In this document: piece after piece, positions 3,273-53,887 of the stretch
How the letters are laid out: each line of letters starts with the position of its first letter
How positions within the stretch are numbered: position 1 is the first letter of the stretch
Source: Eledone cirrhosa
Lineage: Eukaryota
Direction of reading: 5' to 3'
NCBI GenBank assembly: GCA_964016885.1
Contig: OZ024747.1
Coordinates: 1,674,001-1,738,000, forward strand
Length of the DNA stretch: 64,000 bases
The notes under the pieces: generated by a model
Database searches by the model: none
Told to the model about the DNA's origin: nothing
What the model saw: only the letters and a program-made list of their open reading frames with translations
Program-made: the position numbers and the translations under genes

Positions 3273-6200
3273 ATGTCTCCATTGATATTGTTGTTGTTGT
3301 TGTTAATGGCTGACAACTGCTGGTGTCTGGATCATATCTATCATGTGAAAGAGAACAATGATATACACAGCTATATTGGAGATATTGTTACTGATACACA
3401 CTTACTGGATAATATAACATCTGGGGATGATAGAAAGAAACTGAGATTTAATGTACTCCAGGATAGTACTGATGAAACTGTTCAGTTATTTAATGTTACA
3501 TCTGGAGGACAACTGTACACAGCTGCCATATTAGATGCTGAAACTCTGTGTCAATATAATGCGGAATGTTTCAGGATATTGGAAATAGCAGTTCAATATA
3601 GTCATTCTTATATGAAGATATTAGAAATCAAAGTTATGATAGAAGATGTCAATGATAATTATCCTGTGTTTCCAATCGAGGAATTTCATCTACAATTTCA
3701 TGAAAATGTGCCAAAGGGCATAAAAGAAATAATTCCAAATGCTTTTGATAAAGATGTCAACATTCAGAATTCACAAATTAATTATGAAATCAAAGATAAT
3801 TTAGATATCCCTTTCAAATTAGTTTTATCACATAAATCTGGAGAAGCTGATTTACTTGAATTGGTTTTAGAAGAGAATTTAGATCGAGAAAGAAAATCTG
3901 ATTATCATTTCCAACTAGCTGCTATAGATGGAGGATCTCCACCTAAAGAAGGTATACTGGATATAAAAATATTAGTGGAAGATAAAAATGATAATTCACC
4001 ATTATTCTCTCAAAGTATTTATAATATCTCAATAAACGATAAACACCGGTTGAAGAAACCTGTATTTATATTTTCTGCTACAGACTTGGATGAAGGAGAA
4101 AATGGGAGAATTTCTTACTTAATTAATTCTAAAACAACAGAAAAGTCAAAACTTGTTTTTAAATTAGATGAAGATACGGGAGAATTGTTTCTAACAAAAG
4201 AATTTGAGTTTGGAAGAATCTATGAATTATTTGTTGAAGCCAGAGATAATGGTAAACCTCCAAGATATTCAAGGGCAGCAAATGTTCTTATAAATGGTAT
4301 CAGCCACTTTAACAATCCACCAAACATTGATGTCAAGTTTGTCTTAAAGTCAACTGGAAACACAGCTGTCATCTCAGAAGCAACTCTAATTCACAGCTTT
4401 GTTGCTTATGTCAAAGTTACTGACAATGATAATGAAGTTAATGGACAAGTGAAGTGTTATTTAGAAAATAAATACCTTCAGTTAATCTCAATATCTCAGA
4501 AGAAATATAAAGTTGTTGTAAAGAGTAAAATAGATAGAGAGAGTGAGAAGAGTTTTAATTTCACGATTAAATGTCAAGATAAAGGTTTACCTCCATTGAG
4601 AGTAGAGAAAGAGTTTTCTATGTTAGTTACTGATATAAATGATGTGAAACCTAAGTTTAGTGAGGATATATTTAAATTTCTCACCTATGAAAATGAAGAT
4701 AAAGACTTCCCTGTTGGATATATCAATGCTACAGACCCAGATCTTGGAGATGGAGGACAATTGATCTATTCTCTTTTAAATAATGGAAAAGATATTCTAC
4801 CATTTCAGATATCAAATCTAGGATTTATTTCTACAACTCAGTCACTAGATAGAGAAGAAAAGAAGATGTATGAGTTTAAAGTTTTAGTAAAAGATAAAGG
4901 AAGACCATCACTAGAGAACACAGCAAATGTTATTGTTGAAGTTATGGATTTAAATGATAATGTTCCATATTTCAGTTTCCCTAATGTTAACCCTTTTAGT
5001 CTTGATGTTCACTACCATCCTCACAGTGAACATGATATCACAGTTATAAGGGCCTCTGATAGAGATAGTCAACATAATGCCTTCCTTACATATGAAATAG
5101 TAAGAGGTAATAAGAAAGAGTTATTTAGAATTAATCCTCACTCTGGTGTCTTATCTTTCTCTCGGTCAGTTTACCAAAATGATGCTGGACTCTATCAACT
5201 AGAATTAAGTGTAAAAGATAATGGTAGTCCAGTTCTGTCATCAACAACAACTTTATCTTTGACTTTAACAGTTAGTAACAACACATCAAAGATATTTAAG
5301 ACATCTTTAAAGACAACAACATTAAGTAAAGGTCTTCCTTTTAATGTGATAATTATTATTGTTATAGCAACTGTGGTTGTATCAGTTGTTATAGTGATCT
5401 CTATATCAATCTGTATAGTTCATAGACTAAAGCAGACAGATAGTAACTATAGTAGTGGTAGTAGTAGTAGTGGTGGTGGTGGTAGTGTTGATATGTACCA
5501 CAAGGTTACACCTACATTAAATATACAGTCAAAATATATCTTTGATCCAACTTGTGTTGATCCTGGAGTACATTATACCATGGGGAGAAATGTGAAGAAA
5601 TCTCAACCAATGATAGACAGAGAAGATATTCACTGCAGAACTCTACCAGGTGACAGATGGGGTAATCCAGCTTTCAGACCTCATCAACAGGTAAGATAAC
5701 TTTAGAATAATATCTTATAACTTGGAAACATGTCCATCACTTTTCAAATCATTTATGACATCATCATTGTTGTTTTACTTCCACTTTTACCTGCTTGCAA
5801 GGGTGGGATCGGTCCTTTCCAGCACAGCATCCCTCCTTTCTCCTTTCGTCACAGTTCTCGTCATCTCCTCTGTCAGCTTCAGCGATCTGAAGTCAGCTCT
5901 CACCACCTTTGCACAAGATTTTCATTGTTTTCCTCTACTACAGCTTCCTTCCACTGGGATTTCTTGGCACTTCTTTACCCAGCAGTCATCTTCATTGCGT
6001 ATCGCATATCCATATCAATGCAGTCTTCTAACCCGCACACTACAGCCTATCCCTCTTATATACAGTTTCCCTCTCAACTCATCTATGCTTGGTTGTTCAC
6101 GCATATTGATGTTACACTTCCAATGGAGCATACTTGCTTCATTTCTCTCCAGACGTCGCATATCCTCCACAGTTGCTGCCCATGTCTCACTACCATGCAG

Positions 6201-7502
6201 CATGGCGCAACTCACACAGGCATCATATAACCAGCCTTTTGTTCGTAGGGAGAAACTCTTCTTTGTCAACAGAGGAAGCAGCTCCCTAAACTTCTTCCAA
6301 CCTGTTCTTATATAGATACTATGGCCTTGGTGCACCCTCCTTCCTTGCTAATCTGGTCACCTAGGTATAGGAAGCTATCAACTACCTCCATAGAACTTAC
6401 CTACATTTTAAAAATACGTCTATCACTGCCACTTCTATTATCAAATTTATAGTTGTATATTTAATATAACCCTATATCATGACAAGGAGAATTAAACATA
6501 ATTTGTCATGTATCTTACAGTTTTATATTAAATTATTCAGTGTTGAATTACTAAATATTTATCGCAAAATATATTCAAAATATATCGATAATTGTAAATT
6601 TTCTCCCAACATATATTTTGGGATTTATTTTGAAATTAATAATTAAATGAATGGAATATTTCAAGTGCTAGTTAAGTTTTCTGCCATGTCAAGAAGCAAT
6701 TTCTTGAAATGTATTTCTAACTGGAATCACAAGAAGAATGTTTTGTTCTGTGACTCTCAAATCTATGTTGTACATGTATCTCATTAACTTTAGATGTTTG
6801 TTCCAAGAGAAGAAAGTATGTCTCCAGGTTACAGAGAACTAAACAATACTGACCAATTCAGTGAGATGTCAACATTATCATCTCACACTGATAGTGGTCA
6901 TGGTTGGAGTGTTGGTAGTGCTGGACATTATGAGGAACTGCCAGGTAAGTGTGAAATACTCAATATTTCTACAAAAATCTCTTATCCATACAATGTTAAG
7001 CATATTTTAATATTTCTAATTATTAAAACATCATTTTATACCAATGTAGTTTGTTAATTAGTAAAATTCTTTCCAAGACCAGAATTATGTATTTTTAGAA
7101 TTTACTTTCACTTTATTTTGTACAAAATTTGATTCTGTCCCCTAAATCAACCTATTTCCAGATCTGTGCCGTTACCAAAGTGACAATACATGGAACAGGA
7201 GAAATCAACTTCCACACACACTGACAAGATCAAGGGGAGATAACAACATTGGATATCATTATCAACCTAATATTAACACTTCCTGTGATCAGCAGCAAAT
7301 ACCTTTCACTATAACTGGTACCACATCTAACATAACTGAACAACCATCTACAATGACAAGTGACTTTACTTCAAAGAGTAAACCACCTCTACCAGCTGTA
7401 CCTAAAGTAACAACAGTACCAAAGGTACCATCAATACCTCAGGTACCTTCTCTGACTATAGTAAAAAACTTACATAGCAGCTCTATGGAAACCCTGAATT
7501 AA
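3273..7502 (+). CDS. Protocadherin G1, ~969 aa; coding exons 3273-5690, 6794-6944, 7162-7502
   Basis: TTTCAG acceptor then ATG and a Leu-rich signal peptide; six cadherin repeats (DxNDNxP, LDRE, AxDxD), EC1 C-x5-C, hydrophobic TM. Junctions are CAG|GTAAGA (phase 0), TTTAG|ATG, CCAG|GTAAGT (phase 1) and TTTCCAG|AT, and the spliced frame is open to TAA. Confidence 0.92.
5757..6405 (-). mobile_element. 5'-truncated RTE-clade LINE in G1 intron 2
   Basis: Minus-strand ORF WKKFRELLPLLTKKSFSLRTKGWLYDACV..MLHGSETWA..LERNEASML; (ATG)n-type tail; the empty site is seen in G6/G7 intron 2. Confidence 0.85.
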
Positions 7503-7837: not shown

Positions 7838-8540
7838 AACTAACAGTAGGAAGAATGCCACACTAAATACCATGTAGTATTTTGTTATATATCTTTGTGG
7901 ACTGAGTTGAAATCCTACCCCAGATCACCTTTGTTATATTTTCCCAGGGGTCTTCTACAACCCTCACCAAATACAGTTTAATTATCTGAATAACAATATC
8001 AAACATAACTTTACCTTATATAATGGTAAACAATATATAGTACAACAAATATTTGATATGAAAATATAGATAGAGTGATAAATTATTCAAATATTAACAT
8101 TTTATCAAGAAATATTTGAGAGAATATTTTATAGAATTTGTAAAACATCTCTATAACATTTCTCAAATATATATTTATTTAGAGCCACAGTTTCGTATTT
8201 TCAAATGAGTTCAATTATTCTATAATATAATTAATTACTTAAAATATTGTTTTAATAACATTTTATTATAGATTTGTTAAGTAAAGAAGTTTGTAAACAC
8301 AACAGGAAAAGTTGAAACTATTGACTTGAAAAAGTTTTCAAAGTCTTCTAAAGTCATAAAATAATATTCCTTCCTTGAAATTACAATTTAATTAATTTAA
8401 TAATTAATATCTATTATATATTTCATTGTTTTAAACATTTTAGATATTAAATATTTCCACCTATTGAATTATAAATGTTCTAGTCATACACATGTATATG
8501 TATCTCTATATATATATGTTTGTGTAAGTAAATATAATAG

Positions 8541-8751
8541 TGTGTGAGTCAGCCCATCATTAACTGCAAGAACTGGAGGCTGTACTTCCGTTTCCTTACT
8601 TGGGAACAACAGACAGCTTGTCATTGGCTACAACACATATTACATACTACATAACTTGATAGAACTATATAACAGTATACCAAACTACTCACAACTACTA
8701 TATCTTACCAGAATATTGAAACAGTATCAATATAAACAACTGTTGGTAAGT
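8541..8751 (+). promoter_or_regulatory. Putative promoter and non-coding exon 1 of G2 (donor at 8746)
   Basis: Near-identical to 931-1141. Confidence 0.7.
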
Positions 8752-10175: not shown

Positions 10176-13100
10176 ATGTCTCCATTGATATTGTTGTTGT
10201 TGTTAATGGCTGACAACTGCTGGTGTCTGGATCATATCTATCATGTGAAAGAGAACAATGATATACACAGCTATATTGGAGATATTGTTACTGATACACA
10301 CTTACTGGATAATATAACATCTGGGGATGATAGAAAGAAACTGAGATTTAATGTACTCCAGGATAGTACTGATGAAACTGTTCAGTTATTTAATGTTACA
10401 TCTGGAGGACAACTGTACACAGCTGCCATATTGGATGCTGAAACTCTGTGTCAATATAATGTGGAATGTTTCAGGATATTGGAAATAGCAGTTCAATATA
10501 GCCATTCTTATATGAAGATATTAGAAATCAAAGTTATGATAGAAGATGTCAATGATAATTATCCTGTGTTTCCAAACAAGAAATTTATTCTGCAATTTGA
10601 TGAAAATGTATTGATAGGAACAAGAGAAATAATTCCAAATGCCATTGACAAAGATGTCAGCATTCAGAATTCAAAGATTTCTTATCAACTGAGGAATACC
10701 AGTGAAGATATTTTCCAATTGTCAGTCACAGATATTTCTGCTAAGCAAAGTAATATTGAATTAATTTTGGAAGGAAAGTTAGACAGAGAAAGAAAACAAA
10801 CCCATGTTTTCCAGCTAATTGCCACAGATGGAAGAACTCCACCAATGGAAGGTATAATGGATATAAAAATATTAGTGCGAGATAAAAATGATAATTCTCC
10901 AGTATTCTTACAAAACATCTACAATGTAACTATAGAAGATACACAAAATATGAACAAACCCATTATCACATTATCAGCAAAAGATTTAGATGCAGGGGAT
11001 AATGGAAGGGTTGTATATAGATTTAGTCCTGATATCTCAGAAAAAGTAAAGAAATTCTTTGTTTTAAACCAAACCTCTGGAGAATTGTATATAAAGGATG
11101 AATTTCAGTTTGGAAAAATCTACAAATTGTTTATCGAAGCCAGAGATAATGGTAATCCTTCGAAATTTTCTACTGTCACTGTTCTTATAAATGGTATCAG
11201 CCACTTTAACAATCCACCAAACATTGATGTCACATTTGTCTTAAAGTCAACTGGAAACACAGCTGTCATCTCAGAAGCAACTCTAATTCACAGCTTTGTT
11301 GCTTATGTCAAAGTTACTGACAATGATAATGAAGTTAATGGACAAGTGAAGTGTTATTTAGAAAATAAATACCTTCAGTTAATCTCAATATCTCAGAAGA
11401 AATATAAAGTTGTTGTAAAGAGTAAAATAGATAGAGAGAGTGAGAAGAGTTTTAATTTCACGATTAAATGTCAAGATAAAGGTTTACCTCCATTGAGAGT
11501 AGAGAAAGAGTTTTCTATGTTAGTTACTGATATAAATGATGTGAAACCTAAGTTTAGTGAGGATATATTTAAATTTCTCACCTATGAAAATGAAGATAAA
11601 GACTTCCCTGTTGGATATATCAATGCTACAGACCCAGATCTTGGAGATGGAGGACAATTGATCTATTCTCTTTTAAATAATGGAAAAGATATTCTACCAT
11701 TTCAGATATCAAATCTAGGATTTATTTCTACAACTCAGTCACTAGATAGAGAAGAAAAGAAGATGTATGATTTTAAAGTTTTAGTAAAAGATAAAGGAAG
11801 ACCATCACTAGAGAACACAGCAAATGTTATTGTTGAAGTTATGGATTTAAATGATAATGTTCCATATTTCAGTTTCCCTAATGTTAACCCTTTTAGTCTT
11901 GATGTTCACTACCATCCTCACAGTGAACATGATATCACAGTTATAAGAGCCTCTGATAGAGATAGTCAACATAATGCCTTCCTTACATATGAAATAGTAA
12001 GAGGTAATAAGAAAGAGTTATTTAGAATTAATCCTCACTCTGGTGTCTTATCTTTCTCTCGGTCAGTTTACCAAAATGATGCTGGACTCTATCAACTAGA
12101 ATTAAGTGTAAAAGATAATGGTAGTCCAGTTCTGTCATCAACAACAACTTTATCTTTGACTTTAACAGTTAGTAACAACACATCAAAGATATTTAAGACA
12201 TCTTTAAAGACAACAACATTAAGTAAAGGTCTTCCTTTTAATGTGATAATTATTATTGTTATAGCAACTGTGGTAGTATCAGTTGTTATAGTGATCTCTA
12301 TATCAATCTGTATAGTTCATAGACTAAAGCAGACAGATAGTAACTATAGTAGTGGTAGTAGTGGTGGTGGTGGTAGTGTTGATATGTACCACAAGGTTAC
12401 ACCTACATTAAATATACAGTCAAAATATATCTTTGATCCAACTTGTGTTGATCCTGGAGTACATTATACCATGGGGAGAAATGTGAAGAAATCTCAACCA
12501 ATGATAGACAGAGAAGATATTCACTGCAGAACTCTACCATGTGACAGATGGGGTAATCCAGCTTTCAGACCTCATCAACAGGTAAGATAACTTTAGAATA
12601 ATATCTTATAACTTTGAAACAATTCCATCTATTTCAAGATATTTTAATGATAATTAAATATATTGTTATATAATTTATATAAACCTCATGACAAGGAGCT
12701 GCCACATATGTTCTCATACAACATACTCTTTTATATATATACTCTAAATTTCTCTCATTTAATATTGAAGTAAATACTTTATTGTTAAACTATTGAAAAT
12801 GCATTGGAAAATATATTCAATGATATATCAACCATTGTTTATTTTCTGTCATAACAAATATTTTATGTTAGGACTTTTTTGAAAGTTATAATTATTTCTT
12901 ATAAACAGTGAAAGTGATAATTTCTGTCTTGTAGAGAAGAAAATTCTTCAAATATTTCCTATAAAATAAAGACTATCTATGTAACATTGATTTATCACTT
13001 GAGGTATATTTATACATATTCTAAATAGAGAGATCGTAATGTTTAATTATCTGTAATAAATATTTTCACTGATCCTCAAATCTTCTAAACCACATGCTAT

Positions 13101-13697
13101 TATGTAATCTGGTGTTGATGTCTGTTAGATGAGAAAATATTTTGTAAGAATTAAAATAGTGTTGAGACAATTTATACCAATATTTCTAACTGGAGTCACA
13201 AGAAGAATGTTTTGTTCTGTGACTCTCAATTCTATGTTGTACATGTATCTCATTAACTTTAGATGTTTGTTCCAAGAGAAGAAAGTATGTCTCCAGGTTA
13301 CAGAGAAGTAAACAATACTGACCAATTCAGTGAGATGTCAACATTATCATCTCACACTGATAGTGGTCATGGTTGGAGTGTTGGTAGTGCTGGACATTAT
13401 GAGGAACTGCCAGGTAAGTCTGAAATCTACTATATAAATGTATAACCAGTTGGCACCTACACCAGTGTAGGATATCTTTACAATGGAGGAGGAAAGGGAC
13501 GTTTCAGTGAGAGAGGGGGAAGAGGAGATACTACTACTGTATGTTAAACCCTCCCTCCCACTACTCTCCTTCCTCCTCCCACAACTCAGTCTTCCAAAAC
13601 GAGGCAACAACTTATTAGAAATATACATAAAGAAATTTCAAACAAAGCAGACGACAATCTAATTTTGGTTGACAACTGAACAGATGTCTCTGTATAA

Positions 13698-13754
<57 letters not shown>

Positions 13755-15236
13755 AGCCACTGATATGGATTCTGAACACGTGCACACTCTTAGATCCCAT
13801 TAAGGTCAACTGCAGTAATTGGTGATAAGTTACAAAAAAATGTGATCATCAATGATCTGAAAGTTGGCTTACATTGAGACTTGTCCGAAGAATGAAACCC
13901 AAATTGTATGTTGACGAATATTCGTACTCCCGGCATGTTAATTGTAACATGCCATCTTTGAGAGTAGAATTTATTTTGTTGATATTTCGAGGTGTTGTAT
14001 CATGGGAAGATTAACACGAATTAAGAAGGTGTAACTTCTCCTCCATTATTGACACTTTGCAACAGTGAATGTTACAAGGCCCTCTTTAGAGACAACACTT
14101 CTGATGGTTTATCTGACTTATTATGGTGTGTTTTCTTGGGTTATGTCTACTATAGAGGGAAAACAGGATGGTTTTATTGAATTGCTTCAGTCATTCAAAG
14201 GGCTTTTCAAACGGTGATATACAGGGTGCTTGAACAGTACCTGAATATGTTCACTTGGTTATAATTTCTTCAATAATTGCGATGACTTCCTCAATTGTTC
14301 TGTGTTTGTTCTTGAGTGCTAAGGCAATAAGTTTGATATTCTTATACATAAGTTTGATACTCTTCGAGCTCAAACTTCCCTGGATAATTCACTCTGAATG
14401 AAGAAAGCTGGATGGAAGAAGGACTTATGACTTAAACAGCTATTGATAGATCCACACAAAAATATTGATCTGCCAAAAACACACCTAGCAAAGGCTGCTA
14501 TTCAATCCAGTGTGGGCACCCAGGGTCGCTAGCATTTTGAGGCGCACTCTGGGAACTGCACCTTTTGCGGGTATTACCGGGTACTGCAACTAGTACTCAA
14601 TATTTCTACCAAATGTGGATTTTAATGTATTTTAATATTTCTATTTGTTAAAACATCATTTTACTCCAGTGTAGTTTGTTAGTTGATAACATTCTTTCCA
14701 AGACAAAACATATTCTCTGAAACACATTTTTGATTTTGAAGATTGGCAAAACATTCAGGAAAATTCCTCTCTTTTTCTTATTTATTCTGTTGTTGAGATA
14801 TCGAACCTTTTAACCAGAATGATGTATTTTAAAATTTACTTTCATTTTATTTTGTACAAAATTTGATTCTGTCCCCTAAATCAACCTATTTCCAGATCTG
14901 TGTCGTTATCAAAGTGACAATACATGGAACAGGAGAAATCAACTTCCACACACACTGACAAGATCAAGAGGAGATAACAACATAGGATATCATTATCAAC
15001 CTAATGTTAACACTTCCTGTGATCAGCAGCAAATTCCTTTCACTATAACTGGTACCACATCTAACATAACTGAACAACCATCTACAATGACAAGTGACTT
15101 TACTTCAAAGAGTAAACCACCTCTACCAGCTGTACCTAAAGTAACAACAGTACCAAAGGTACCATCAATACCTCAGGTACCTTCTCTGACTATAGTAAAA
15201 AACTTACATAGCAGCTCTATGGAAACCCTGAATTAA
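10176..15236 (+). CDS. Protocadherin G2, ~965 aa; coding exons 10176-12581, 13263-13413, 14896-15236
   Basis: Same architecture and splice junctions as G1; open spliced frame. Confidence 0.92.
13426..14593 (+). mobile_element. Non-autonomous Helitron (~1.17 kb) in G2 intron 3
   Basis: Starts TCTACTATATAAA, ends CAACTAG, has an imperfect subterminal GGT-ATT-ACC hairpin, and sits between A and T without a TSD. The empty site GAAA|TACTCAAT is present in G1, G3 and G7. Confidence 0.85.
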
Positions 15237-15691: not shown

Positions 15692-16395
15692 CACTAAAAT
15701 ATTATAAAACTAACAGTAGGAAGAATGCCACATTAAATACCATGTAGTATTTTGTTATATATCTTTGTGGACTGAGTTCAAATCCTACCCCTGTTCACCT
15801 TTGTTATATTCTCCCAGGGGTCTTCTACAACCCTCACCAAATACAGTTTAATTACCTGAATAACAATATCAAACATAACTTTACCTTATATAATGGTAAA
15901 CTATATATAGTATAACAAATATTTGATATGAAAATATATATAGTGATAAATTATTCAAATATTAACATTTTATCAAGAAATATTTGAGAGAATATTTTAT
16001 AGAATTTATATAACATCTCTATAACATTTCTTAAAGACATATTTATTTAGAGCCACAGTTTCGTATTTTCAAATGAGTTCAAATATTCTATAATATAATT
16101 AATTACTTAAAGTACTGTTTTAATAAATTTTTATTATAGATTTGTTAATTAAAGAAGTTTGTAAACTAAACCAGAAAAGTTGAAACTATTGACTTGAAAA
16201 AGTTTTCAAAGTCTTACTAAAGTCATAAAATAAGATTCCTTCAATGAAATTATAATTTAATTAATTTAATAATTAATATCTATTATATATTTCATTGTTT
16301 TAAATATTTCCACCTATTGAATTATAAATGTTCTAGTCACACACATGTATATGTATCTCTATATATATGTGTGTGTGTGTAAGTAAATATAATAG

Positions 16396-16606
16396 TGTGT
16401 GAGTCAGCCCATCATTAACTGCAAGAACTGGAGGCTGTACTTCCGTTTCCTTACTTGGGAACAACAGACAGCTTGTCATTGGCTACAACACATATTACAT
16501 ACTACATAACTTGATAGAACTATATAACAGTATACCAAACTACTCACAACTACTATATCTTACCAGAATATTGAAACAGTAACAATATAAACAACTGTTG
16601 GTAAGT
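16396..16606 (+). promoter_or_regulatory. Putative promoter and non-coding exon 1 of G3 (donor at 16601)
   Basis: Near-identical to 931-1141. Confidence 0.7.
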
Positions 16607-17841: not shown

Positions 17842-20800
17842 ATGTCTCCATTGATATTGTTGTTGTTGTTGTTAATGGCTGACAACTGCTGGTGTCTGGA
17901 TCATATCTATCATGTGAAAGAGAACAATGATATACACAGCTATATTGGAGATATTGTTACTGATACACACTTACTGGATAATATAACATCTGGGGATGAT
18001 AGAAAGAAACTGAAATTTAATGTACTCCAGGATAGTACTGATGAAACTGTTCAGTTATTTAATGTTACATCTGGAGGACAACTGTACACAGCTGCCATAT
18101 TGGATGCTGAAACTCTGTGTCAATATAATGTGGAATGTTTCAGGATATTGGAAATAGCAGTTCAATATAGCCATTCTTATATGAAGATATTAGAAATCAA
18201 AGTTATGATAGAAGATGTCAATGATAATTATCCTGTGTTTCCAAACAAGGAATTTACCCTACAATTTGATGAAAATGTATTCACAGGAACAAAGGGGGCT
18301 ATTCCAAATGCTTTTGATAAAGATGTCAGTATTGAGAATTCTGATCTGTCTTATCAACTCAACAAAGATGTCGATATTCCTTTTAAAATCTTTGTTTCTA
18401 ATAAACCAGATGGAACTGATTTTCTACAACTTGTTTTAGAAGATAACTTAGATCGAGAGAAGAAAGATATTTATAATATCCAGTTAATAGCTACAGATGG
18501 AGGATCTCCACCAAAGGATGGTGTACTGGATATAAAAATATTGGTGGAGGACAAAAATGATAATTCCCCTGTATTCTCCCAGGATATCTACAATGTAACT
18601 GTAAATGATAAACACCAGATAAACAAACCTGTTGTAAGGTTGTCAGCTACAGATTTAGATGAAGGAGAAAATGGAAGAATTTCTTATGTCTTTAATAAAG
18701 CTAAAACAACAAATAAGATAAAAGAATCTTTTAAACTGGATGAAATAACTGGAGAATTGTTTCTGAAGGACAACTTTAGTTATGGAAAACTCTATGAGCT
18801 ATTTATTGAAGCCAGAGATAATGGTAAACCACCGATGTCTTCAACAGTTACAGTTCTTATAAATGGTATCAGTCACTTTAACAATCCACCAAACATTGAT
18901 GTCAAGTTTCTCTTAAAGTCAACTGGAAACACAGCTGTCATCTCAGAAGCAATTCTAATTCACAGCTTTGTTGCTTATGTCAAAGTTACTGACAATGATA
19001 GTGAAGTTAATGGACAAGTGAAGTGTTATTTAGAAAATAAATACCTTCAGTTAATCTCAATATCTCAGAAGAAATATAAAGTTGTTGTAAAGAGTAAAAT
19101 AGATAGAGAGAGTGAGAAGAGTTTTAGTTTCACGATTAAATGTCAAGATAAAGGTTTACCTCCATTGAGAGTAGAGAAAGAGTTTTCTATGTTAGTTACT
19201 GATATAAATGATGTGAAACCTAAGTTTAGTGAGGATATATTTAAATTTCTCACCTATGAAAATGAAGATAAAGACTTCCCTGTTGGATATATCAATGCTA
19301 CAGACCCAGATCTTGGAGATGGAGGACAATTGATCTATTCTCTTTTAAATAATGGAAAAGATATTCTACCATTTCAGATATCAAATCTAGGATTTATTTC
19401 TACAACTCAGTCACTAGATAGAGAAGAAAAGAAGATGTATGAGTTTAAAGTTTTAGTAAAAGATAAAGGAAGACCATCACTAGAGAACACAGCAAATGTT
19501 ATTGTTGAAGTTATGGATTTAAATGATAATGTTCCATATTTCAGTTTCCCTAATGTTAACCCTTTTAGTCTTGATGTTCACTACCATCCTCACAGTGAAC
19601 ATGATATCACAGTTATAAGGGCCTCTGATAGAGATAGTCAACATAATGCCTTCCTTACATATGAAATAGTAAGAGGTAATAAGAAAGAGTTATTTAGAAT
19701 TAATCCTCACTCTGGTGTCTTATCTTTCTCTCGGTCAGTTTACCAAAATGATGCTGGACTCTATCAACTAGAATTAAGTGTAAAAGATAATGGTAGTCCA
19801 GTTCTGTCATCAACAACAACTTTATCTTTGACTTTAACAGTTAGTAACAACACATCAAAGATATTTAAGACATCTTTAAAGACAACAACGTTAAGTAAAG
19901 GTCTTCCTTTTAAAGTGATAATTATTATTGTTATAGCAACTGTGGTTGTATCAGTTGTTATAGTGATCTCTATATCAATCTGTATAGTTCATAGACTAAA
20001 GCAGACAGATAGTAACTATAGTAGTGGTAGTAGTAGTGGTGGTGGTAGTGTTGATATGTACCACAAGGTTACACCTACATTAAATATACAGTCAAAATAT
20101 ATCTTTGATCCAACTTGTGTTGATCCCGGAGTACATTATACCATGGGGAGAAATGTGAAGAAATCTCAACCAATGATAGACAGAGAAGATATTCACTGCA
20201 GAACTCTACCAGGTGACAGATGGGGTAATCCAGCTTTCAGACCTCATCAACAGGTAAGATAACTTTAGAATAATATCTTATAACTTGGAAACATGTCTGT
20301 CACTTTTCAAATCATTTATGACATCATCATCATTGTTTTACGTCCACTTTTACCTGTTTGCAAGGGTGGGATCGGTCCTTTCCAGCACAGCATCCCTCCT
20401 TTCTCCTTTCGTCATGGTTCTCGTCAACTCCTCTGTAAGCTTTAGTGATCTGAAGTCAGCTCTCACCACCTTTAGCACACGATTTTCATTGTTTTCCTCT
20501 ACTGCAGCTTCTTTCCTCTGTGATTTCTTGGCATTTCTTTACCCAGCAGTCATCTTCATTGCGTATCGCATTTCCATATCAATGAAGTCTTCTAACCCAC
20601 ACACTACAGCCTATCCCTCTTATACAGTTTCCCTCTCAACTCATCTATGCTTGGTTGTTCACGCATATTGATGTTACACTTCCAATGGAGCATACTTGCT
20701 TCATTTCTCTCCAGACGTTGCATATCCTCCACAGTTGCTGCCCATGTCTCACTACCATGCAGCATGGCGCAGCTCACACAGGCATCATATAACCAGCCTT

Positions 20801-22843: not shown

Positions 22844-23563
22844 CACTAAAATATTATAAAACTAACAGTAGGAAGAATGCCACACTAAATACCATGTAGT
22901 ATTTTGTTATATATCTTTGTGGACTGAGATCAAATCCTACCCCAGATCACCTTTGTTATATTTTCCCAGGGGTCTTCTACAACCCTCACCAAATACAGTT
23001 TAATTATCTTAATTACAATATCAAACATAACTTTACCTTATATAATGGTAAACTATATATAGTACAACAAATATTTGATATGAAAATATAGATAGAGTGA
23101 TAAATTATTCAAATATTAACATTTTATCAAGAAATATTTGAGAGAATATTTTATAGAATTTGTATAACATCTCTATAACATTTCTCAAATATATATTTAT
23201 TTAGAGCCACAGTTTCGTATTTTCAAATGAGTTAAATTATTCTATAATATAATTAATTACTTAAAATATTGTTTTAATAACATTTTATTATAGATTTGTT
23301 AAGTAAAGAAGTTTGTAAACACAACAGGAAAAGTTGAAACTATTGACTTGAAAAAGTTTTCAAAGTCTTACTAAAGTCATAAAATAAGGTTCCTTCATTG
23401 AAATTATAATTTAATTAATTTAATAATTAATATCTATTATATATTTCATCGTTTTAAACATTTTAGATATTAAATATTTCCTCCTATTGAATTATAAATG
23501 TTCTAGTCATACACATGTATATGTATCTCTATATATATATGTGTGTGTAAGTAAATATAATAG

Positions 23564-23774
23564 TGTGTGAGTCAGCCCATCATTAACTGCAAGAACTGGA
23601 GGCTGTACTTCCGTTTCCTTACTTGGGAACAACAGACAGCTTGTCATTGGCTACAACACATATTACATACTACATAACTTGATAGAACTATATAACAGTA
23701 TACCAAACTACTCACAACTACTATATCTTACCAGAATATTGAAACAGTAACAATATAAACAACTGTTGGTAAGT
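23564..23774 (+). promoter_or_regulatory. Putative promoter and non-coding exon 1 of G4 (donor at 23769)
   Basis: Near-identical to 931-1141. Confidence 0.7.
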
Positions 23775-36000: not shown

Positions 36001-36593
36001 TTGATGTCTGTTAGATGAGAAAATATTTTGTAAGAATTAAAATAGTGTTGAGACAATTTATACCAATATTTCTAACTGGAGTCACAAGAAGAATGTTTTG
36101 TTCTGTGACTCTCAATTCTATGGTGTACATGTATCTCATTAACTTTAGATGTTTGTTCCAAGAGAAGAAAGTATGTCTCCAGGTTACAGAGAAGTAAACA
36201 ATACTGACCAATTCAGTGAGATGTCAACATTATCATCTCACACTGATAGTGGTCATGGTTGGAGTGTTGGTAGTGCTGGACATTATGAAGAACTGCCAGG
36301 TAAGTCTGAAATCTACTATATAAATGTATAACCAGTTGGCACCTACACCAGTGTAGGATATCTTTACAATGGAGGAGGAAAGGGACGTTTCAGTGAGAGA
36401 GGGGAAGAGGAGATACTACTACTGTATGTTAAACCCTCCCTCCCACTACTCTCCTTCCTCCTCCCACAACTCAGTCCTCCAAAACGAGGCAACAACTTAT
36501 TAGAAATATACATAAAGAAATTTCAAACAAAGCAGACGACAATCTAATTTTGGTTGACAACTGAACAGATGTCTCTGTATAAATATATATATG

Positions 36594-39568: not shown

Positions 39569-40287
39569 CACTAAAATATTATAAAACTAATAGTAGGAAG
39601 AATGCCACACTAAACACCATGTAGTATTTTGTTATATATCTTTGTGGACTGAGTTCAAATCCTACCCCAGTTCACCTTTGTTATATTCTCCCAGGGGTCT
39701 TCTACAACCCTCACCAAATACAGTTTAATTATCTTAATTACAATATCAAACATAACTTTACCTTATATAATGGTAAACTATATATAGTACAACAAATATT
39801 TGATATGAAAATATATATAGAGGGATAAATTATTCAAATATTAACATTTTATCAAGAAATATGAGAGAATATTTTATAGAATTTGTATAACATCTCTATA
39901 ACATTTCTTAAAGATATATTTATTTTGAACCACAGTTTCGTATATTCAAATGAGTTCAATTATTTTATAATATAATTAATTACTTAAAATATTATTTTAA
40001 TAAATTTTTTATGATAGATTTGTTAAGTAAAGAAGTTTGTTAACTCAACCAGAAAAGTTGAAACTATAGAATTGAAAAAGTTTTCGAAGTCTTACTAAAG
40101 TCATAAAATAAGATTTCATCATTGAAATTATAATATAATTAATTTAATAATTAATATTTCTTATATATTTCATTGTTTTAAACATTTTAGATATTAAATA
40201 TTTCCACCCATTGAATTATAAATGTTCTAGTCACACACATCTATATGTATCTCTATATATATATGTGTGTGTAAGTAAATATAATAG

Positions 40288-40498
40288 TGTGTGAGTCAGC
40301 CCATCATTAACTGCAAGAACTGGAGGCTGTACTTCCGTTTCCTTACTTGGGAACAACAGACAGCTTGTCATTGGCTACAACACATATTACATACTACATA
40401 ACTTGATAGAACTATATAACAGTATACCAAACTACTCACAACTACTATATCTTACCAGAATATTGAAACAGTAACAATATAAACAACTGTTGGTAAGT
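40288..40498 (+). promoter_or_regulatory. Putative promoter and non-coding exon 1 of G6 (donor at 40493)
   Basis: Near-identical to 931-1141. Confidence 0.7.
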
Positions 40499-41906: not shown

Positions 41907-44900
41907 ATGTCTCCATTGATATTGTTGTTGTTGTTAATGGCTGACAACTGCTGGTGTCTGGATCATATCTATCATGTGAAAGAGAACAATGATATACACA
42001 GCTATATTGGAGATATTGTTACTGATACACACTTACTGGATAATATAACATCTGGGGATGATAGAAAGAAACTGAGATTTAATGTACTCCAGGATAGTAC
42101 TGATGAAACTGTTCAGTTATTTAATGTTACATCTGGAGGACAACTGTACACAGCTGCCATATTGGATGCTGAAACTCTGTGTCAATATAATGTGGAATGT
42201 TTCAGGATATTGGAAATAGCAGTTCAATATAGCCATTCTTATATGAAGATATTAGAAATCAAAGTTATGATAGAAGATGTCAATGATAATTACCCTGTGT
42301 TTCCAAACAAGGAGTTTATTCTGCAATTTGATGAAAGTGATTCCAAAGGTTCCAAAGAAATAATTCCAAATGCCATTGACAAAGATGTCAGCATTCAGAA
42401 TTCAAAGATTTCTTATCAACTGAGGAATACCAGTGAAGATATTTTCCAATTGTCAGTCACAGATATTTCTGCTAAGCAAAGTAATATTGAATTAATTTTG
42501 GAAGGAAAGTTAGACAGAGAGAGAAAACAAACTCATGTTTTCCAGCTAATTGCCACAGATGGAAGAACTCCACCAATGGAAGGTATAATGGATATAAAAA
42601 TATTAGTGCGAGATAAAAATGATAATTCTCCAGTATTCTTACAAAACAACTACAATGTAACTATAGAAGATACACAAAATATGAACAAACCCATTATCAT
42701 ATTATCAGCAACAGATTTAGATGCAGGGGATAATGGAAGGGTTGTATATAGTTTTAGTCCTGATATCTCAGGAAAAGTAAAGAAATTCTTTGTTTTAAAC
42801 CAAACCTCTGGAGAATTGTATATAAAGGATGAATTTCAGTTTGGAAAAATCTATACATTGTTTATCGAAGCCAGAGATAATGGTAATCCTTCGAAATTTT
42901 CTACTGTCACTGTTCTTATAAATGGTATCAGCCACTTTAACAATCCACCAAACATTGATGTCAAGTTTCTCTTAAAGTCAACTGGAAACACAGCTGTCAT
43001 CTCAGAAGCAACTCTAATTCACAGCTTTGTTGCTTATGTCAAAGTTACTGACAATGATAATGAAGTTAATGGACAAGTGAAGTGTTATTTAGAAAATAAA
43101 TACCTTCAGTTAATCTCAATATCTCAGAAGAAATATAAAGTTGTTGTAAAGAGTAAAATAGATAGAGAGAGTGAGAAGAGTTTTAATTTCACGATTAAAT
43201 GTCAAGATAAAGGTTTACCTCCATTGAGAGTAGAGAAAGAGTTTTCTATGTTAGTTACTGATATAAATGATGTGAAACCTAAGTTTAGTGAGGATATATT
43301 TAAATTTCTCACCTATGAAAATGAAGATAAAGACTTCCCTGTTGGATATATCAATGCTACAGACCCAGATCTTGGAGATGGAGGACAATTGATCTATTCT
43401 CTTTTAAATAATGGAAAAGATATTCTACCATTTCAGATATCAAATCTGGGATTTATTTCTACAACTCAGTCACTAGATAGAGAAGAAAAGAAGATGTATG
43501 AGTTTAAAGTTTTAGTAAAAGATAAAGGAAGACCACCACTAGAGAACACAGCAAATGTTATTGTTGAAGTTATGGATTTAAATGATAATGTTCCATATTT
43601 CAGTTTCCCTAATGTTAACCCTTTTAGTTTTGATGTTCACTACCATCCTCACAGTGAACATGATATCACAGTTATAAGGGCCTCTGATAGAGATAGTCAA
43701 CATAATGCCTTCCTTACATATGAAATAGTAAGAGGTAATAAGAAAGAGTTATTTAGAATTAATCCTCACTCTGGTGTCTTATCTTTCTCTCGGTCAGTTT
43801 ACCAAAATGATGCTGGACTCTATCAACTAGAATTAAGTGTAAAAGATAATGGTAGTCCAGTTCTGTCATCAACAACAACTTTATCTTTGACTTTAACAGT
43901 TAGTAACAACACATCAAAGATATTTAAGACATCTTTAAAGACAACAACATTAAGTAAAGGTCTTCCTTTTAAAGTGATAATTATTATTGTTATAGCAACT
44001 GTGGTAGTATCAGTTGTTATAGTGATCTCTATATCAATCTGTATAGTTCATAGACTAAAGCAGACAGATAGTAACTATAGTAGTGGTAGTAGTAGTAGTG
44101 GTGGTGGTAGTGTTGATATGTACCACAAGGTTACACCTACATTAAATATACAGTCAAAATATATCTTTGATCCAAGTTGTGTTGATCCTGGAGTACATTA
44201 TACCATGGGGAGAAATGTGAAGAAATCTCAACCAATGATAGACAGAGAAGATATTCACTGCAGAACTCTACCAGGTGACAGATGGGGTAATCCAGCTTTC
44301 AGACCTCATCAACAGGTAAGATAACTTTAGAATAATATCTTATAACTTTGAAACATGTCTGTCACTTTTCAAATCATTTCTAATATATAGTTGTATATTT
44401 TGTATAACCCTATATCACAACAAGGAGAGTTAAACATAATTTGTCATATATTTTACAGTTTTATACTAAATATTTATTGCAAAATATATCAATAATTGTA
44501 AATTTTCTCCCAACAGATATTTTTGGATTTATTTTGAAATTAATAATTAAATGAATGGAATATTTCAAGTGCTAGTTAAGTTTTCTGCCATGTTAAGAAG
44601 CAATTTCTTGAAATGTATTTCTAACTAGAGTCACAAGAAGAATGTTTTGTTCTGTGACTCTCAATTCTATGTTGTACATGTATCTCATTAACTTTAGATG
44701 TTTGTTCCAAGAGAAGAAAGTATGTCTCCAGGTTACAGAGAACTAAACAATACTGACCAATTCAGTGAGATGTCAACATTATCATCTCACACTGATAGTG
44801 GTCATGGTTGGAGTGTTGGTAGTGCTGGACATTATGAGGAACTGCCAGGTAAGTCTGAATTACCATATATCTCCTATCCATATAATTATTAGTGTATTTT

Positions 44901-45549
44901 AGTACTTTTAATTGTTAAATTAATTTTTTATCCGAATATTAATTAGTAAATTTCTTATAAAGCCAAAATATATTTTGTGGAAGATTTTAAATTCTGGTCA
45001 TTAATGAAAATAGGAAAAACATTAAAATATATTTTATTTCTGTCTCTTCCTCACTCTCTCTCTCTTACCCTCATATTCTGTCTCTCTCTCTCTCCAGTTC
45101 TGATATTGAGATATCGAATCTTTTAACCAGAATGATGTATTTTAAAATTTACTTTCAATTTATTTTGTACAAAATTTGATTCTGTCCCCTAAATCAACCT
45201 ATTTCCAGATCTGTGTCGTTACCAAAGTGACAATACATGGAACAGGAGAAATCAACTTCCACACACACTGACAAGATCAAGAGGAGATAACAACATTGGA
45301 TATCATTATCAACCTAATGTTAACACTTCCTGTGATCAGCAGCAAATACCTTTCACTATAACTGGTACCACATCTAACATAACTGAACAACCATCTACAA
45401 TGACAAGTGACTTTACTTCAAAGAGTAAACCACCTCTACCAGCTGTACCTAAAGTAACAACAGTACCAAAGGTACCATCAATACCTCAGGTACCTTCTCT
45501 GACTATAGTAAAAAATTTACATAGCAGCTCTATGGAAACCCTGAATTAA
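41907..45549 (+). CDS. Protocadherin G6, ~966 aa; coding exons 41907-44315, 44698-44848, 45209-45549
   Basis: Same architecture; short introns 2 and 3 lacking the RTE and Helitron insertions; no downstream minisatellite. Confidence 0.92.
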
Positions 45550-46727
45550 TATCTATGAAATCATCATTAATCCATTATATTAACATAAATATTATTGTCA
45601 TAAGCCAGTCATTATCTAAACAGTGTAGAAAATATTAATGATATTATATTTTAGTATTAAAGAAAATTAGTTGGTGAGAATCAATGTTAGGCTTCATACA
45701 GAACTGACATACTTTAAATTTAGTATAGAGGTAGATTGATATAGATATATATTAGTAGATATTGATATTTACCTCTAATTTAGTGAGAATCAATGTTAGA
45801 CTACATACAGAACTGACATATTTTAAAATTTAGTATAGAGGTAGAGTGATATAGACATAGGTAGATACTAATGTTAAACTCTACAGTTATATAAAAATAT
45901 ATTTATGAAATATAACTCAGTAACATTGTAATATTTCATATATATTAACCCTGAATAGTTTCTAACAGTTGTCTCCCTTGGTTATAATAGTAATTCTAAC
46001 GGACATTGTTTTGAAAATTAGTTTTTTATTAATAAATTATCTAAAATAAATATAATCGCTAAATTTTCTATGATAGATATATAAATTGACTTTATTTATA
46101 TTTTCCTCCCTGTTAGGTATATATTTGATATAAATACTGTTGGAGCAATGTAATCCTTTTAATATCTCACAACAACTTCATATATTTTCTCATTAATATA
46201 TTATTTATGTTACAAAAAGTAATTCTTCACTAAATTTTATAATTGTCCCTTTATTAAGGCTCAAAGCACTTGTTTGATGATAGGTTTCTTAGAAGGTTTC
46301 TGCCCAGCTCTCCTGAGAGATCCTTACTACTGTTTTTATTGTAATTAGTGTCACTTTAATATTTGTTTATTCATAACTGTAGTTTCGTATTTATCAAAAG
46401 TTTACATATTAACTTTTGTGGCTAATATATATATTTATGATATTATATATTTGTATAATTTTTCATAGCAATATATTTTAGTTTTACTTTCTAACATGAT
46501 TTTTTAAAGATCATGAGTAGCTTTTCATTCTTGAAACCAGACTTACTAAAAATAGTTTTTTCTTCTTACTTTCTTACTAAATATCTTACCAATAATATTT
46601 TCCACACTGATTTTATTTCCCATCGTTAACATTGTAAACATAAAATATTTCAACCATTTAATTATATCTACACACCATACACATGTATATAGATATATGT
46701 GTCTATGTGTGGGGTTAAATATAATAG

Positions 46728-46938
46728 TGTCTGAGTCAGCCCATCATTAACTGCAAGAACTGGAGGCTGTACTTCCGTTTCCTTACTTGGGAACAACAGA
46801 CAGCTTGACATTGGCTACAACACATATTACATACTAAATAACTTGATAGAACTATATAACAGTATACCAAACTACTCACAACTACTATATCTTACCAGAA
46901 TATTGAAACAGTAACAATATAAACAACTGTTGGTAAGT
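46728..46938 (+). promoter_or_regulatory. Putative promoter and non-coding exon 1 of G7 (donor at 46933)
   Basis: About 3 differences from the G1-G6 block, although the flanks are diverged or unrelated. Confidence 0.72.
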
Positions 46939-50223: not shown

Positions 50224-53200
50224 ATGTTGTCCATTGTTTTGTTATTGTTAATGGCTGACAACTGCTGGTGTCTGGATCATATCTATCATGTGAAAGAGAA
50301 CAATGATATACACAGCTATATTGGAGATATTGTTACTGATACACACTTACTGGATAATATAACATCTGGGGATGATAGAAAGAAACTGAGATTTAATGTA
50401 CTCCAGGATAGTACTGATGAAACTGTTCAGTTATTTAATGTTACATCTGGAGGACAACTGTACACAGCTGCCATATTGGATGCTGAAACTCTGTGTCAAT
50501 ATAATGTGGAATGTTTCAGGATATTGGAAATAGCAGTTCAATATAGCCATTCTTATATGAAGATATTAGAAATCAAAGTTATGATAGAAGATGTCAATGA
50601 TAATTATCCTGTGTTTCCAAACATGGAATTTCATTTACAATTTGATGAAGATGATTTAATAGGAACAAAGGGGGCTATTTCAAATGCTTTTGATAAAGAT
50701 GTCAGTATTAAAAACTCAAAGATTTCTTATCAACTAAAAAATAACAGTGAAAATTCTTTCAAATTATCTGTTCAAAGAATTTCTGACAGGCAAAGTAATA
50801 TTGAATTACTATTAGAAAGAAATTTAGACAGAGAGACAAAGGAATCCCATATTCTTCAAATAATAGCAACAGATGAGGGATCTCCACCAAAAGAGACTGA
50901 ATTAATTATTCTTATTACAGTCAAGGATCTAAATGATAATTCTCCAGTATTCTCACCAAATATCTACAATGTAACTGTAGAAGATACACAAAATAAGAAC
51001 AAACCCATTATCACATTATCAGCAACAGATTTAGATGCAGGGGATAATGGAAGGGTTGTATATAGTTTTAGTCCTGACATCTCAGAAAAAGTAAAGAAAT
51101 TCTTTGTTTTAAACCAAACCTCTGGAGAATTGTATATAAAGGATGAATTTCAGTTTGGAAAAATCTACAGATTGTTTATCGAAGCCAGAGATAATGGTAA
51201 TCCTTCGAAATTTTCTACTGTCACTGTTCTTATAAATGGTATCAGCCACTTTAACAATCCACCAAACATTGATGTCAAGTTTCTCTTAAAGTCAACTGGA
51301 AACACAGCTGTCATCTCAGAAGCAACTCTAAGTCACAGCTTTGTTGCTTATGTCAAAGTTACTGACAATGATAATGAAGTTAATGGACAAGTGAAGTGTT
51401 ATTTAGAAAATAAATACCTTCAGTTAATCTCAATATCTCAGAAGAAATATAAAGTTGTTGTAAAGAGTAAAATAGATAGAGAGAGTGAGAAGAGTTTTAA
51501 TTTCACGATTAAATGTCAAGATAAAGGTTTACCTCCATTGAGAGTAGAGAAAGAGTTTTCTATGTTAGTTACTGATATAAATGATGTGAAACCTAAGTTT
51601 AGTGAGGATATATTTAAATTTCTCACCTATGAAAATGAAGATAAAGACTTCCCTGTTGGATATATCAATGCTACAGACCCAGATATTGGAGATGGAGGAC
51701 AATTGATCTATTCTCTTTTAAATAATGGAAAAGATATTCTACCATTTCAGATATCAAATCTGGGATTTATTTCTACAACTCAGTCACTAGATAGAGAAGA
51801 AAAGAAGATGTATGAGTTTAAAGTTTTAGTAAAAGATAAAGGAAGACCACCACTAGAGAACACAGCAAATGTTATTGTTGAAGTTATGGATTTAAATGAT
51901 AATGTTCCATATTTCAGTTTCCCTAATGTTAACCCTTTTAGTTTTGATGTTCACTACCATCCTCACAGTGAACATGATATCACAGTTATAAGGGCCTCTG
52001 ATAGAGATAGTCAACATAATGCCTTCCTTACATATGAAATAGTAAGAGGTAATAAGAAAGAGTTATTTAGAATTAATCCTCACTCTGGTGTCTTATCTTT
52101 CTCTCGGTCAGTTTACCAAAATGATGCTGGACTCTATCAACTAGAATTAAGTGTAAAAGATAATGGTAGTCCAGTTCTGTCATCAACAACAACTTTATCT
52201 TTGACTTTAACAGTTAGTAACAACACATCAAAGATATTTAAGACATCTTTAAAGACAACAACATTAAGTAAAGGTCTTCCTTTTAAAGTGATAATTATTA
52301 TTGTTATAGCAACTGTGGTAGTATCAGTTGTTATAGTGATCTCTATATCAATCTGTATAGTTCATAGACTAAAGCAGACAGATAGTAACTATAGTAGTGG
52401 TAGTAGTAGTAGTGGTGGTGGTAGTGTTGATATGTACCACAAGGTTACACCTACATTAAATATACAGTCACAATATATCTTTGATCCAACTTGTGTTGAT
52501 CCTGGAGTACATTATACCATGGGGAGAAATGTGAAGAAATCTCAACCAATGATAGACAGAGAAGATATTCACTGCAGAACTCTACCAGGTGACAGATGGG
52601 GTAATCCAGCTTTCAGACCTCATCAACAGGTAAGATAACTTTAAAATAATATCTTATAACTTTGAAACATGTCTGTCACTTTTCAAATCATTTCTAATAT
52701 ATAGTTGTATATTTTATATAACCCTATATCATGACAAGGAGAGTTAAACATAATTTGTCATGTATTTTACAGTTTTATACTAAAATATTCAGTGTTGAAT
52801 TACTAAATATTTATTGCAAATTATATTCAAAATATATCAATAATTGTAAATTTTCTGCCAACAGATATTTTTGGATTTATTTTGAAATTAATAATTAAAT
52901 GAATGGAATATTTCAACTGCTAGTTAAGAAGCAATTTCTTGAAATGTATTTCTAACTAGAGTCACAAGAAGAATGTTTTGTTCTGTGACTCTCAAATCTA
53001 TGTTGTACATGTCTCTCATTAACTTTAGATGTTTGTTCCAAGAGAAGAAAGTATGTCTCCAGGTTACAGAGAACTAAACAATACTGACCAATTCAGTGAG
53101 ATGTCAACATTATCATCTCACACTGATAGTGGTCATGGTTGGAGTGTTGGTAGTGCTGGACATTATGAGGAACTGCCAGGTAAGTCTGAAATACTCAATA

Positions 53201-53887
53201 TTTCTACCAAATATCTCCTATCCATATAATTATTAGTGTATTTTAGTACTTTTAATTGTTAAATTAATTTTTTATCTGAATATTAATTAGTAAATTTCTT
53301 ATAAAGCCAAAATATATTTTGTGAAAGATTTTAAATTCTGGTCATTAATGAAAATAGGAAAAACATTAAAATATATTTTACTTCTGTCTCTTTCTCACTC
53401 TCTCTCTTACTCTCATACCCTCTCTCTCTCTCCAGTTCTGCTGTTGAGATATCGAACCTTTTAACCAGAATGATGTATTTTAAAATTTACTTTCAATTTA
53501 TTTTGTACAAAATTTGATTCTGTCCCCTAAATCAACCTATTTCCAGATCTGTGTCGTTACCAAAGTGACAATACATGGAACAGGAGAAATCAACTTCCAC
53601 ACACACTGACAAGATCAAGAGGAGATAACAACATTGGATATCATTATCAACCTAATGTTAACACTTCCTGTGATCAGCAGCAAATACCTTTCACTATAAC
53701 TGGTACCACATCTAACATAACTGAACAACCATCTACAATTAAAAGTGACTTTACTTCAAAGAGTAAACCACCTCTACCAGCTGTACCTAAAGTAACAACA
53801 GTACCAAAGGTACCATCAATACCTCAGGTACCTTCTCTGACTATAGTAAAAAACTTACATAGCAGCTCTATGGAAACCCTGAATTAA
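50224..53887 (+). CDS. Protocadherin G7, ~965 aa; coding exons 50224-52629, 53029-53179, 53547-53887; last complete gene in the window
   Basis: Poly-T CAG acceptor at 50189, distinct signal-peptide start MLSIVLLLL, then the same architecture as G1-G6. Confidence 0.92.

Follow-up and report, generated by a model that had tools for sequence, protein, structure and literature searches.

How can the genes of a tandem array remain nearly identical over most of their length and still differ strongly in one internal segment? This question is raised by a stretch of 64,000 nucleotides from the octopod Eledone cirrhosa (contig OZ024747.1, positions 1,674,001-1,738,000; genome size 3.0 Gb), hereafter called the window, which holds seven protocadherin genes on the same strand (G1-G7; Table 1). 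An earlier note on this DNA had described a seven-gene array; seven is the count in the window, but the array has 10 tandem members, with U1-U3 located upstream of the window, and G4 is frameshifted in the second of its six extracellular cadherin (EC) domains. The variable segment of G4 is 31 bases shorter than that of G3 and its frame stops at 25708; G4 is likely a pseudogene. No further array member was found in the 90 kb downstream or in the remainder of the 100 kb upstream of the window. Each unit comprises a 2.4-kb exon 1, which encodes the signal peptide, EC1-6, the transmembrane segment (TM) and part of the tail, followed by 151-bp and 341-bp exons of its own. Exons 1-3 and an upstream splice donor are present in all 10 units, so that every gene indeed has its own copy of the constant parts, as had been claimed. 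Pfam assigns Cadherin_2 (protocadherin-type EC1) and five Cadherin stretches to the array proteins, which, with their TM and non-catenin tail, are six-EC protocadherins. The nearest proteins, the named ones from Octopus and Argonauta, form a top set of 17 matches with 70-76% identity, the next having at most 57% (among the 120 matches listed, of which the named ones are octopod).

The answer which we propose, and which we hold to be probable if well short of certain, is concerted evolution of the unit combined with selection keeping the EC2-EC3 recognition surfaces distinct, convergent with the clustered protocadherins of vertebrates. Codon and protein analyses covered the nine intact genes (36 pairs), G4 being left out. 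In 60-bp windows, pairwise identity averages 0.95-1.00 up to the EC1/EC2 linker, 0.60-0.84 in the segment that follows, and 0.97-1.00 after the motif VLING. This profile bears out the near-identity up to the linker and again from VLING that had been noted for seven genes; the seven segment coordinates given at that time match as well, with each segment beginning 27 bases past the linker motif and stopping one base before VLING. Silent differences per site are 0.009 (EC1), 0.41 (EC2), 0.37 (EC3), 0.010 (EC4), 0.014 (EC5) and 0.003 (EC6), and protein identity is 98-99% for EC1, EC4, EC5, EC6 and the TM, 97-98% for the tail, 65% for EC2 and 70% for EC3. Whole units are 92-96% identical across many kilobases; the upstream non-coding DNA has a median mismatch of 3.7% (42 of 45 pairs being alignable), and introns differ by 6-8% in their alignable parts. 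Since silent divergence in EC2-EC3 is about 10 times that of the upstream non-coding DNA, and the ratio of replacement to silent change (dN/dS) inside the segment is 0.37-0.40, EC2-EC3 is old rather than fast-evolving. The picture of a rapidly diversifying specificity module thus gives way to one of ancient divergence which homogenisation has spared and recombination has reshuffled. The seven segments do differ strongly, but represent three lineages with mosaics and not seven independent sequences.

It appears remote in the extreme that the constant parts are a collapsed or over-polished assembly consensus, a concern voiced in the earlier note. On the G5 unit, short-read contigs of run X1 form single constant pieces of 486 bp (0 differences) and 666 bp (5 differences) at a depth of about 112-120, versus 17 for a piece of the variable segment and 32 for an intron common to two units. 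The contrast is retained in X3 (another sample; depth 23-45 for constant pieces versus 3-6) and in X5 (another organism; 149-195 versus 19, with constant pieces about 4% different from this array). Contig depth does not measure copy number, and X1 may come from the same sample as the assembly, so that the reads provide supporting evidence only. The copies also carry private variants, and independent Argonauta and Octopus assemblies show the same pattern. Assembly trouble does occur just downstream, where an exact 5,260-bp duplication (53362-58621 and 61710-66969, with an orphan exon 3 copy near 61895), likely a false assembly duplication, ends at a 200-base gap.

Probable concerted evolution, old lineages and exchange

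The comparison took in 60 units of this species, O. vulgaris, O. sinensis, O. bimaculoides and Argonauta; it was made at the protein level across species, and partial and duplicate proteins were left out. For EC5/EC6, identity inside a species reaches 98-100% in all of these but O. bimaculoides (91-93%), and drops to 78-83% when this species is set against the other octopods; EC2/EC3 identity is 58-70% within every species compared. The nine intact genes form a single group in the trees for EC1 (support 99), EC4 (98) and EC5-6 (100). Grouping by species and high identity within species are in line with the earlier proposal that the constant parts are homogenised by concerted evolution, and the three analyses suggested along with it (sliding-window identity, per-domain dN/dS and per-domain trees) have thus yielded a dip at EC2-EC3, the dN/dS values given above and species-grouped constant domains.

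The EC2-3 tree, a quick tree with support from the Shimodaira-Hasegawa-like approximate likelihood ratio test (SH-aLRT) only, resolves three lineages: U3/G1, joined to Octopus P0004/P0003 (SH-aLRT 99); G2/G6/G7, joined to Octopus P0131/P0006 (95, nested in a clade with 100); and U1/U2/G3/G5. Forcing the array genes into one EC2-3 clade was rejected by the approximately unbiased test (p-AU 0.0012; 26 rows, with those of O. sinensis and O. bimaculoides left out). Judged from these trees, the EC2-EC3 lineages appear to predate the split from Octopus. A recent duplication of whole units, followed by very fast positive selection on EC2-EC3, would account for the high identity of the units across many kilobases, but is very improbable: the trans-species tree already refutes it unless the groupings reflect convergence, and the excess of silent divergence over non-coding DNA and a dN/dS of 0.4 likewise stand against it. 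As to the Octopus sequences themselves, the public gene models P0125, P0127, P0138 and P0146 (3,900-6,650 residues) each combine several array genes that annotation has fused, and the counts and expression values published for these arrays may consequently be off.

Forty genes from another contig of this genome, C2, were analysed as arrays B (27 core genes) and C (9 genes). Identity in array B is 97, 78, 79 and 98% for EC1, EC2, EC3 and EC4-6, and in array C 94, 86, 92, 97, 99 and 97% for EC1 to EC6; the three arrays of this genome are only 44-68% alike in most domains, yet have the same EC2-EC3 limits. The dip is also found in array-B relatives of Argonauta (13 core genes of 24) and O. sinensis (5 core of 7), which are representatives of 90% clusters and thus biased towards diverged pairs. 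Three genes at the edge of array B (L021, L022 and L050) share EC4-6 (96-99%) but not EC1 with the core, and Argonauta P0161-P0168 are likewise edge genes having the core EC4-6 and a distinct EC1, which makes homogenisation polar along both gene and array.

Recombination inside the variable segment is supported in all three arrays by pairwise homoplasy index (PHI) tests (p=0.0005, 0.0005 and 0.013), and G7 consists of its own EC2 joined to the EC3 of G2/G6. Intron length classes cut across the EC2-3 lineages (G1 and G3 have the same classes for both introns and different variable segments, as do G2 and G5), which constitutes further evidence of recombination between the segment and the 3' part.

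A 22-residue cassette in the first part of EC2 (residues 116-137 of the mature G5 chain) assorts independently of the remaining EC2-EC3, and its types are shared across genera. The cassette comprises the A strand, the A-B loop and the start of the B strand (AlphaFold model; predicted local distance difference test, pLDDT, 88), and is flanked by the identical EC1 on one side and by a conserved calcium-site motif on the other. Cassette distances show no significant correlation with those of the EC2-3 backbone in any of five sets (Mantel r between -0.15 and 0.33), and the same lack of correlation holds for the Argonauta array-B relatives. When backbones are at least 90% alike, the cassettes are less than 90% alike in 57 of 59 pairs (5/5, 21/23 and 31/31); G2 and G6 differ at 7/22 cassette and 6/182 backbone residues, and U3 and G1 at 8/22 and 6/182, respectively. 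For 8 of 13 genes, the array-B cassette types of this species and Argonauta are 82-91% alike, and types are met again in Argonauta and O. sinensis with up to 91% identity, with types of one and the same species down to 41%. In a sliding scan the cassette is the least coupled part in this array and in the Octopus sets. The most diverged piece of arrays B and C (silent divergence 0.52-0.57) lies directly beside the homogenised EC1. Recent transfer of a cassette between arrays B and C was searched for and not found, the best matches in the cassette region being 76-82%. The same two arrays (L023-L059), mostly 51-68% alike by domain, reach 94-98% nucleotide identity in EC4 residues ~345-400, a common stretch that would result from conversion between arrays, in the domain facing EC1.

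Possible recognition surfaces and rival explanations

In vertebrates, EC2/EC3 are reported to carry specificity and EC1/EC4 mostly affinity (PMC5001838), the interface is described to include the EC2 A-B loop, B strand and D-E loop as well as the EC3 C-D loop and F-G hairpin (PMC5115871), and five interface residues are stated to be enough to separate mouse beta6 from beta8 (PMC8901172). The best solved-structure matches of the EC1-4 model of the array are EC1-4 of delta and clustered protocadherins, with ~30% identity to the vertebrate chains, and five named vertebrate interface or specificity positions (Pcdh19 116, 123 and 126; gamma-B 111 and 125) fall in the cassette when placed by alignment offset (+/- one residue). 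A location of the variable residues on the EC2:EC3 trans interface is suggestive only, since the scoring of interface elements gave weak results. A homodimer prediction for EC1-4 of G5 (score 0.00, without folded controls) was used neither way.

Several points weigh against selection for distinct recognition surfaces. (i) Taken together, the elements of the vertebrate interface show no significant enrichment of amino acid diversity over other EC2-3 positions in this array (0.36 vs 0.32, p=0.22), and the same holds for array C, O. vulgaris and Argonauta (p=0.17-0.33); in array B the permutation test gives p=0.013, but a circular-shift test p=0.12. (ii) dN/dS is below 1 everywhere and no higher in interface elements (0.40 vs 0.40). 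(iii) Vertebrate gamma isoforms are reported to encode specificity also in EC1:EC4 (PMC5106212). (iv) The limits of the cassette were set after inspecting the data, and in array B other windows of the sliding scan are as weakly coupled as the cassette. (v) Two array-B genes, L028 and L030 (C2: 239.44 and 239.46 Mb), have identical EC2-3; their 1.2-kb upstream DNA is identical as well, and they represent a very recent or a false duplication. (vi) The earlier notion that EC1, EC4-6, TM and tail are frozen holds in this array, but not for the signal peptide (amino acid identity 0.88, U1 and G7 carrying another leader), and the freeze of EC1 and EC4 is lineage-specific: identity is 97-99% within this species and Argonauta and 78-87% within the Octopus species with their orthologous arrays. 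(vii) If all copies were expressed together, near-identical promoters would be expected just as well.

One could hence think of EC2-EC3 diversity as selected for another role, that is, heterophilic partners, sorting at the level of cell types, or evasion of a ligand or pathogen. All evolutionary results fit any diversifying pressure on an exposed surface, octopus adhesion specificity is given as not known in PMC6339937, non-clustered delta protocadherins with the same interface are described to bind heterophilically (PMC8901172), and near-identical promoters allow co-expression. We nonetheless consider such a role rather unlikely, as the protected region has the domain limits of vertebrate clustered protocadherins, where it sets homophilic specificity, and as orthologous lineages have been kept across genera, with a dN/dS of 0.4 and no arms-race turnover. 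It is less probable still, though it should be kept in mind, that EC2-EC3 has diverged beyond the mismatch limit for conversion and simply stays out of the homogenised pool without ongoing selection. Such neutral lock-in would accord with dN/dS below 1 and silent sites as diverged as replacement sites allow, with the lack of interface enrichment in this array, and with the plain gradient at the array-B edge, where EC4-6 but not EC1 is shared. It is at odds with the recurrence of the same limits in three dissimilar arrays and in four other species, with the exchange that does happen inside the segment (G7 with the EC3 of G2/G6), and with the position of the most diverged piece of arrays B and C, which abuts homogenised EC1, where neutral tracts should erode it.

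If concerted evolution and selection for distinct surfaces act together, gene conversion and unequal crossing-over between neighbouring copies would homogenise the unit, events giving two copies one EC2-EC3 surface would be removed by selection, and crossovers in conserved anchors would create new pairs of cassette and backbone. In an antiparallel EC1-4 trans dimer as in vertebrates, uniform EC1/EC4 might then provide generic affinity, uniform EC5-6 and tail might make cis partners and signalling interchangeable, and, by analogy with vertebrates, combinations of cassette and backbone might confer isoform-specific homophilic recognition. Near-identical promoters imply that sequence cannot separate the copies, which leaves either co-expression of all or stochastic choice; it is thus tempting to speculate that cells differ only by stochastic or epigenetic choice of a copy. 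The cell-identity code of the earlier note would follow from this, and remains a candidate role of the array. We put forward only tentatively, as an idea more likely to fail than to hold, that octopods independently built a neuronal self-recognition code through germ-line shuffling of an ancient 22-residue EC2 cassette and an EC3 module among interchangeable genes with identical promoters, with stochastic copy choice unlike the CTCF and constant-exon system of vertebrates.

Anatomy of the array and its promoter-like element

Table 1. Positions in the window of the parts of genes G1-G7
Feature	Position	Strand	Remark
G1 promoter-like element and predicted non-coding first exon	921..1135	+	donor at 1136
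G1 exon 1: signal, EC1-6, TM, first tail part	3273..5690	+	
G1 EC2 A-to-B cassette	3672..3737	+	
G1 EC2-EC3 variable segment	3675..4283	+	lineage of U3 and Octopus P0004/P0003
G1 exon 2 (151 bp)	6794..6944	+	
G1 exon 3 coding part (341 bp)	7162..7502	+	
G2 promoter-like element and predicted first exon	8531..8745	+	
G2 exon 1	10176..12581	+	cassette 10572-10637; variable segment 10575-11180, lineage of G6/G7 and Octopus P0131/P0006
G2 exon 2	13263..13413	+	
G2 exon 3 coding part	14896..15236	+	
G3 promoter-like element and predicted first exon	16386..16600	+	
G3 exon 1	17842..20253	+	cassette 18241-18306; variable segment 18244-18852, lineage of U1/U2/G5
G3 exon 2	21356..21506	+	
G3 exon 3 coding part	21724..22064	+	
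G4 promoter-like element and predicted first exon	23554..23768	+	
G4 exon 1, frameshifted in EC2	25184..27558	+	cassette 25580-25645
G4 exon 2	28185..28335	+	
G4 exon 3 coding part	29843..30183	+	
G5 promoter-like element and first exon	31430..31644	+	run X3 contig ends exactly at donor 31644
G5 exon 1	33062..35467	+	cassette 33458-33523; variable segment 33461-34063
G5 exon 2	36149..36299	+	
G5 exon 3 coding part	37802..38142	+	
G6 promoter-like element and predicted first exon	40278..40492	+	
G6 exon 1	41907..44315	+	cassette 42303-42368; variable segment 42306-42911
G6 exon 2	44698..44848	+	
G6 exon 3 coding part	45209..45549	+	
G7 promoter-like element and predicted first exon	46718..46932	+	
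G7 exon 1	50224..52629	+	cassette 50617-50682; variable segment 50620-51225, chimera of own EC2 and EC3 of G2/G6
G7 exon 2	53029..53179	+	
G7 exon 3 coding part	53547..53887	+	

A core of 221 bp precedes every gene and ends in a splice donor, with a mean of 2.4 differences among the ten units. By eye, a CGCT box is absent from both strands of this core; zebrafish alpha promoters are likewise reported to have none (PMC4978886). A genome-wide search returned the core only at the 10 units and at one weak site (C7:3294749-3294819, C7 being contig OZ024747.1), an 81% match to part of the core amid other protocadherin genes (matches at 3.27 and 3.37 Mb), and a promoter motif common to other C7 protocadherins may thus exist. 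The core was not found in ~1.2 kb upstream of the 40 C2 genes, a span too short for a fair test. Run X3 is of unrecorded type. Two bins of the intron that follows exon 1 lack depth in this run, one contig ends at the upstream donor of G5 (Table 1), and a second departs where exon 1 ends, a pattern compatible with spliced RNA; the run contains the variable segment of G5 itself without differences.

The first and last genes of the array, U1 and G7 (for G7, 46932-50260), have a leader and acceptor context in common that differ from those of the eight inner genes, and lack the upstream intron sequence common to the latter. An 81-bp minisatellite 3' of exon 3 (7631-7823, 15362-15688, 22190-22838, 30309-30716 and 38268-39564) resembles the end of the exon-3 coding sequence, and its motif count, 0 to 19 across the ten units, is a sign of ongoing unequal exchange. 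In a genome-wide protein search, 115 of 670 candidates were scored and all 115 match a protocadherin query; the family is therefore large in this genome. Its genes are located on the two large contigs C2 and C7, whereas PMC9068888 places the protocadherins of three coleoids on a single chromosome; the difference may stem from a fission or fusion in this lineage or from the assembly.

Known systems and meaning for cephalopod protocadherins

The array is a member of the coleoid protocadherin expansion and not of the vertebrate cluster, yet evolves like the latter. Coleoid sub-arrays (orthologues P0001-P0017; O. vulgaris, O. sinensis, O. bimaculoides and Argonauta hians) are alike in consisting of whole multi-exon genes in the same orientation without a shared constant exon, with 70-76% identical proteins. 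Albertin et al. 2022 (PMC9068888) report that the coleoid expansion was independent and propose gene conversion in general terms; per-domain conversion, old EC2-3 lineages, the cassette and homogenised promoters are not resolved in the passages available of that paper. Those of PMC6339937 mention conversion in general only, and those of PMC6962438 and PMC10084454 add nothing further on conversion of cephalopod protocadherins. No paper resolving such conversion by domain was found in the open-access literature, and the domain-resolved pattern and the shuffled trans-species cassette are apparently undescribed in cephalopods.

Vertebrate clustered protocadherins (mouse Pcdh-alpha 1-12, zebrafish Pcdh2ab1-12) likewise have six EC domains and the TM in one exon, and their EC2/EC3 are reported to escape conversion (PMC4978886, with mouse alpha identities of 96, 69, 59 and 98% for EC1, EC2, EC3 and EC5; PMC7811963 describes the domain-level pattern). 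The earlier claim of convergence is sustained by this match of domain profiles and by the independent expansion (PMC9068888). The ratio of highest to lowest silent divergence (dS) is 231 in zebrafish (PMC4978886) and ~200 here (0.59/0.003); EC1 and EC4 are both frozen in this array, whereas dS is given as 1.67 for zebrafish EC1 and 1.71 for mouse alpha EC4 (PMC4978886). The vertebrate clusters expanded independently, and in the octopod array tail exons and promoter are homogenised as separate copies. Constant exons shared as in vertebrate alpha/gamma were considered and rejected, exons 2 and 3 being present in every unit; with exons this near-identical, splicing across units may still take place. 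Arthropod Dscam1 and chelicerate sDscam combine variable segments in an otherwise constant self-recognition receptor, but each cell makes its own mix, through splicing or the choice of a promoter among the cassettes, whereas the octopod array relies on germ-line recombination within one exon. MHC (major histocompatibility complex) class II patchwork motifs are similar in being old, short and trans-species, and shuffled among backgrounds by short conversion tracts; these, however, are alleles of immune receptors and not paralogues of adhesion molecules.

Cephalopod protocadherins may act as a self/non-self code; the cephalopod papers cited make no functional claim in the passages available. A footprint of selection on the very domains that set vertebrate specificity provides evidence, at the level of sequence, that convergence exceeds gene number. 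The array also offers natural chimeras on an identical chassis (the same backbone with different cassettes, and G7 versus G2/G6), which render the code testable with few constructs, and shows single-cell studies which 600 bases distinguish the copies. Taken as the pattern of a vertebrate neuron 'barcode' that evolved separately in octopods, it would make the barcode idea testable in cephalopods.

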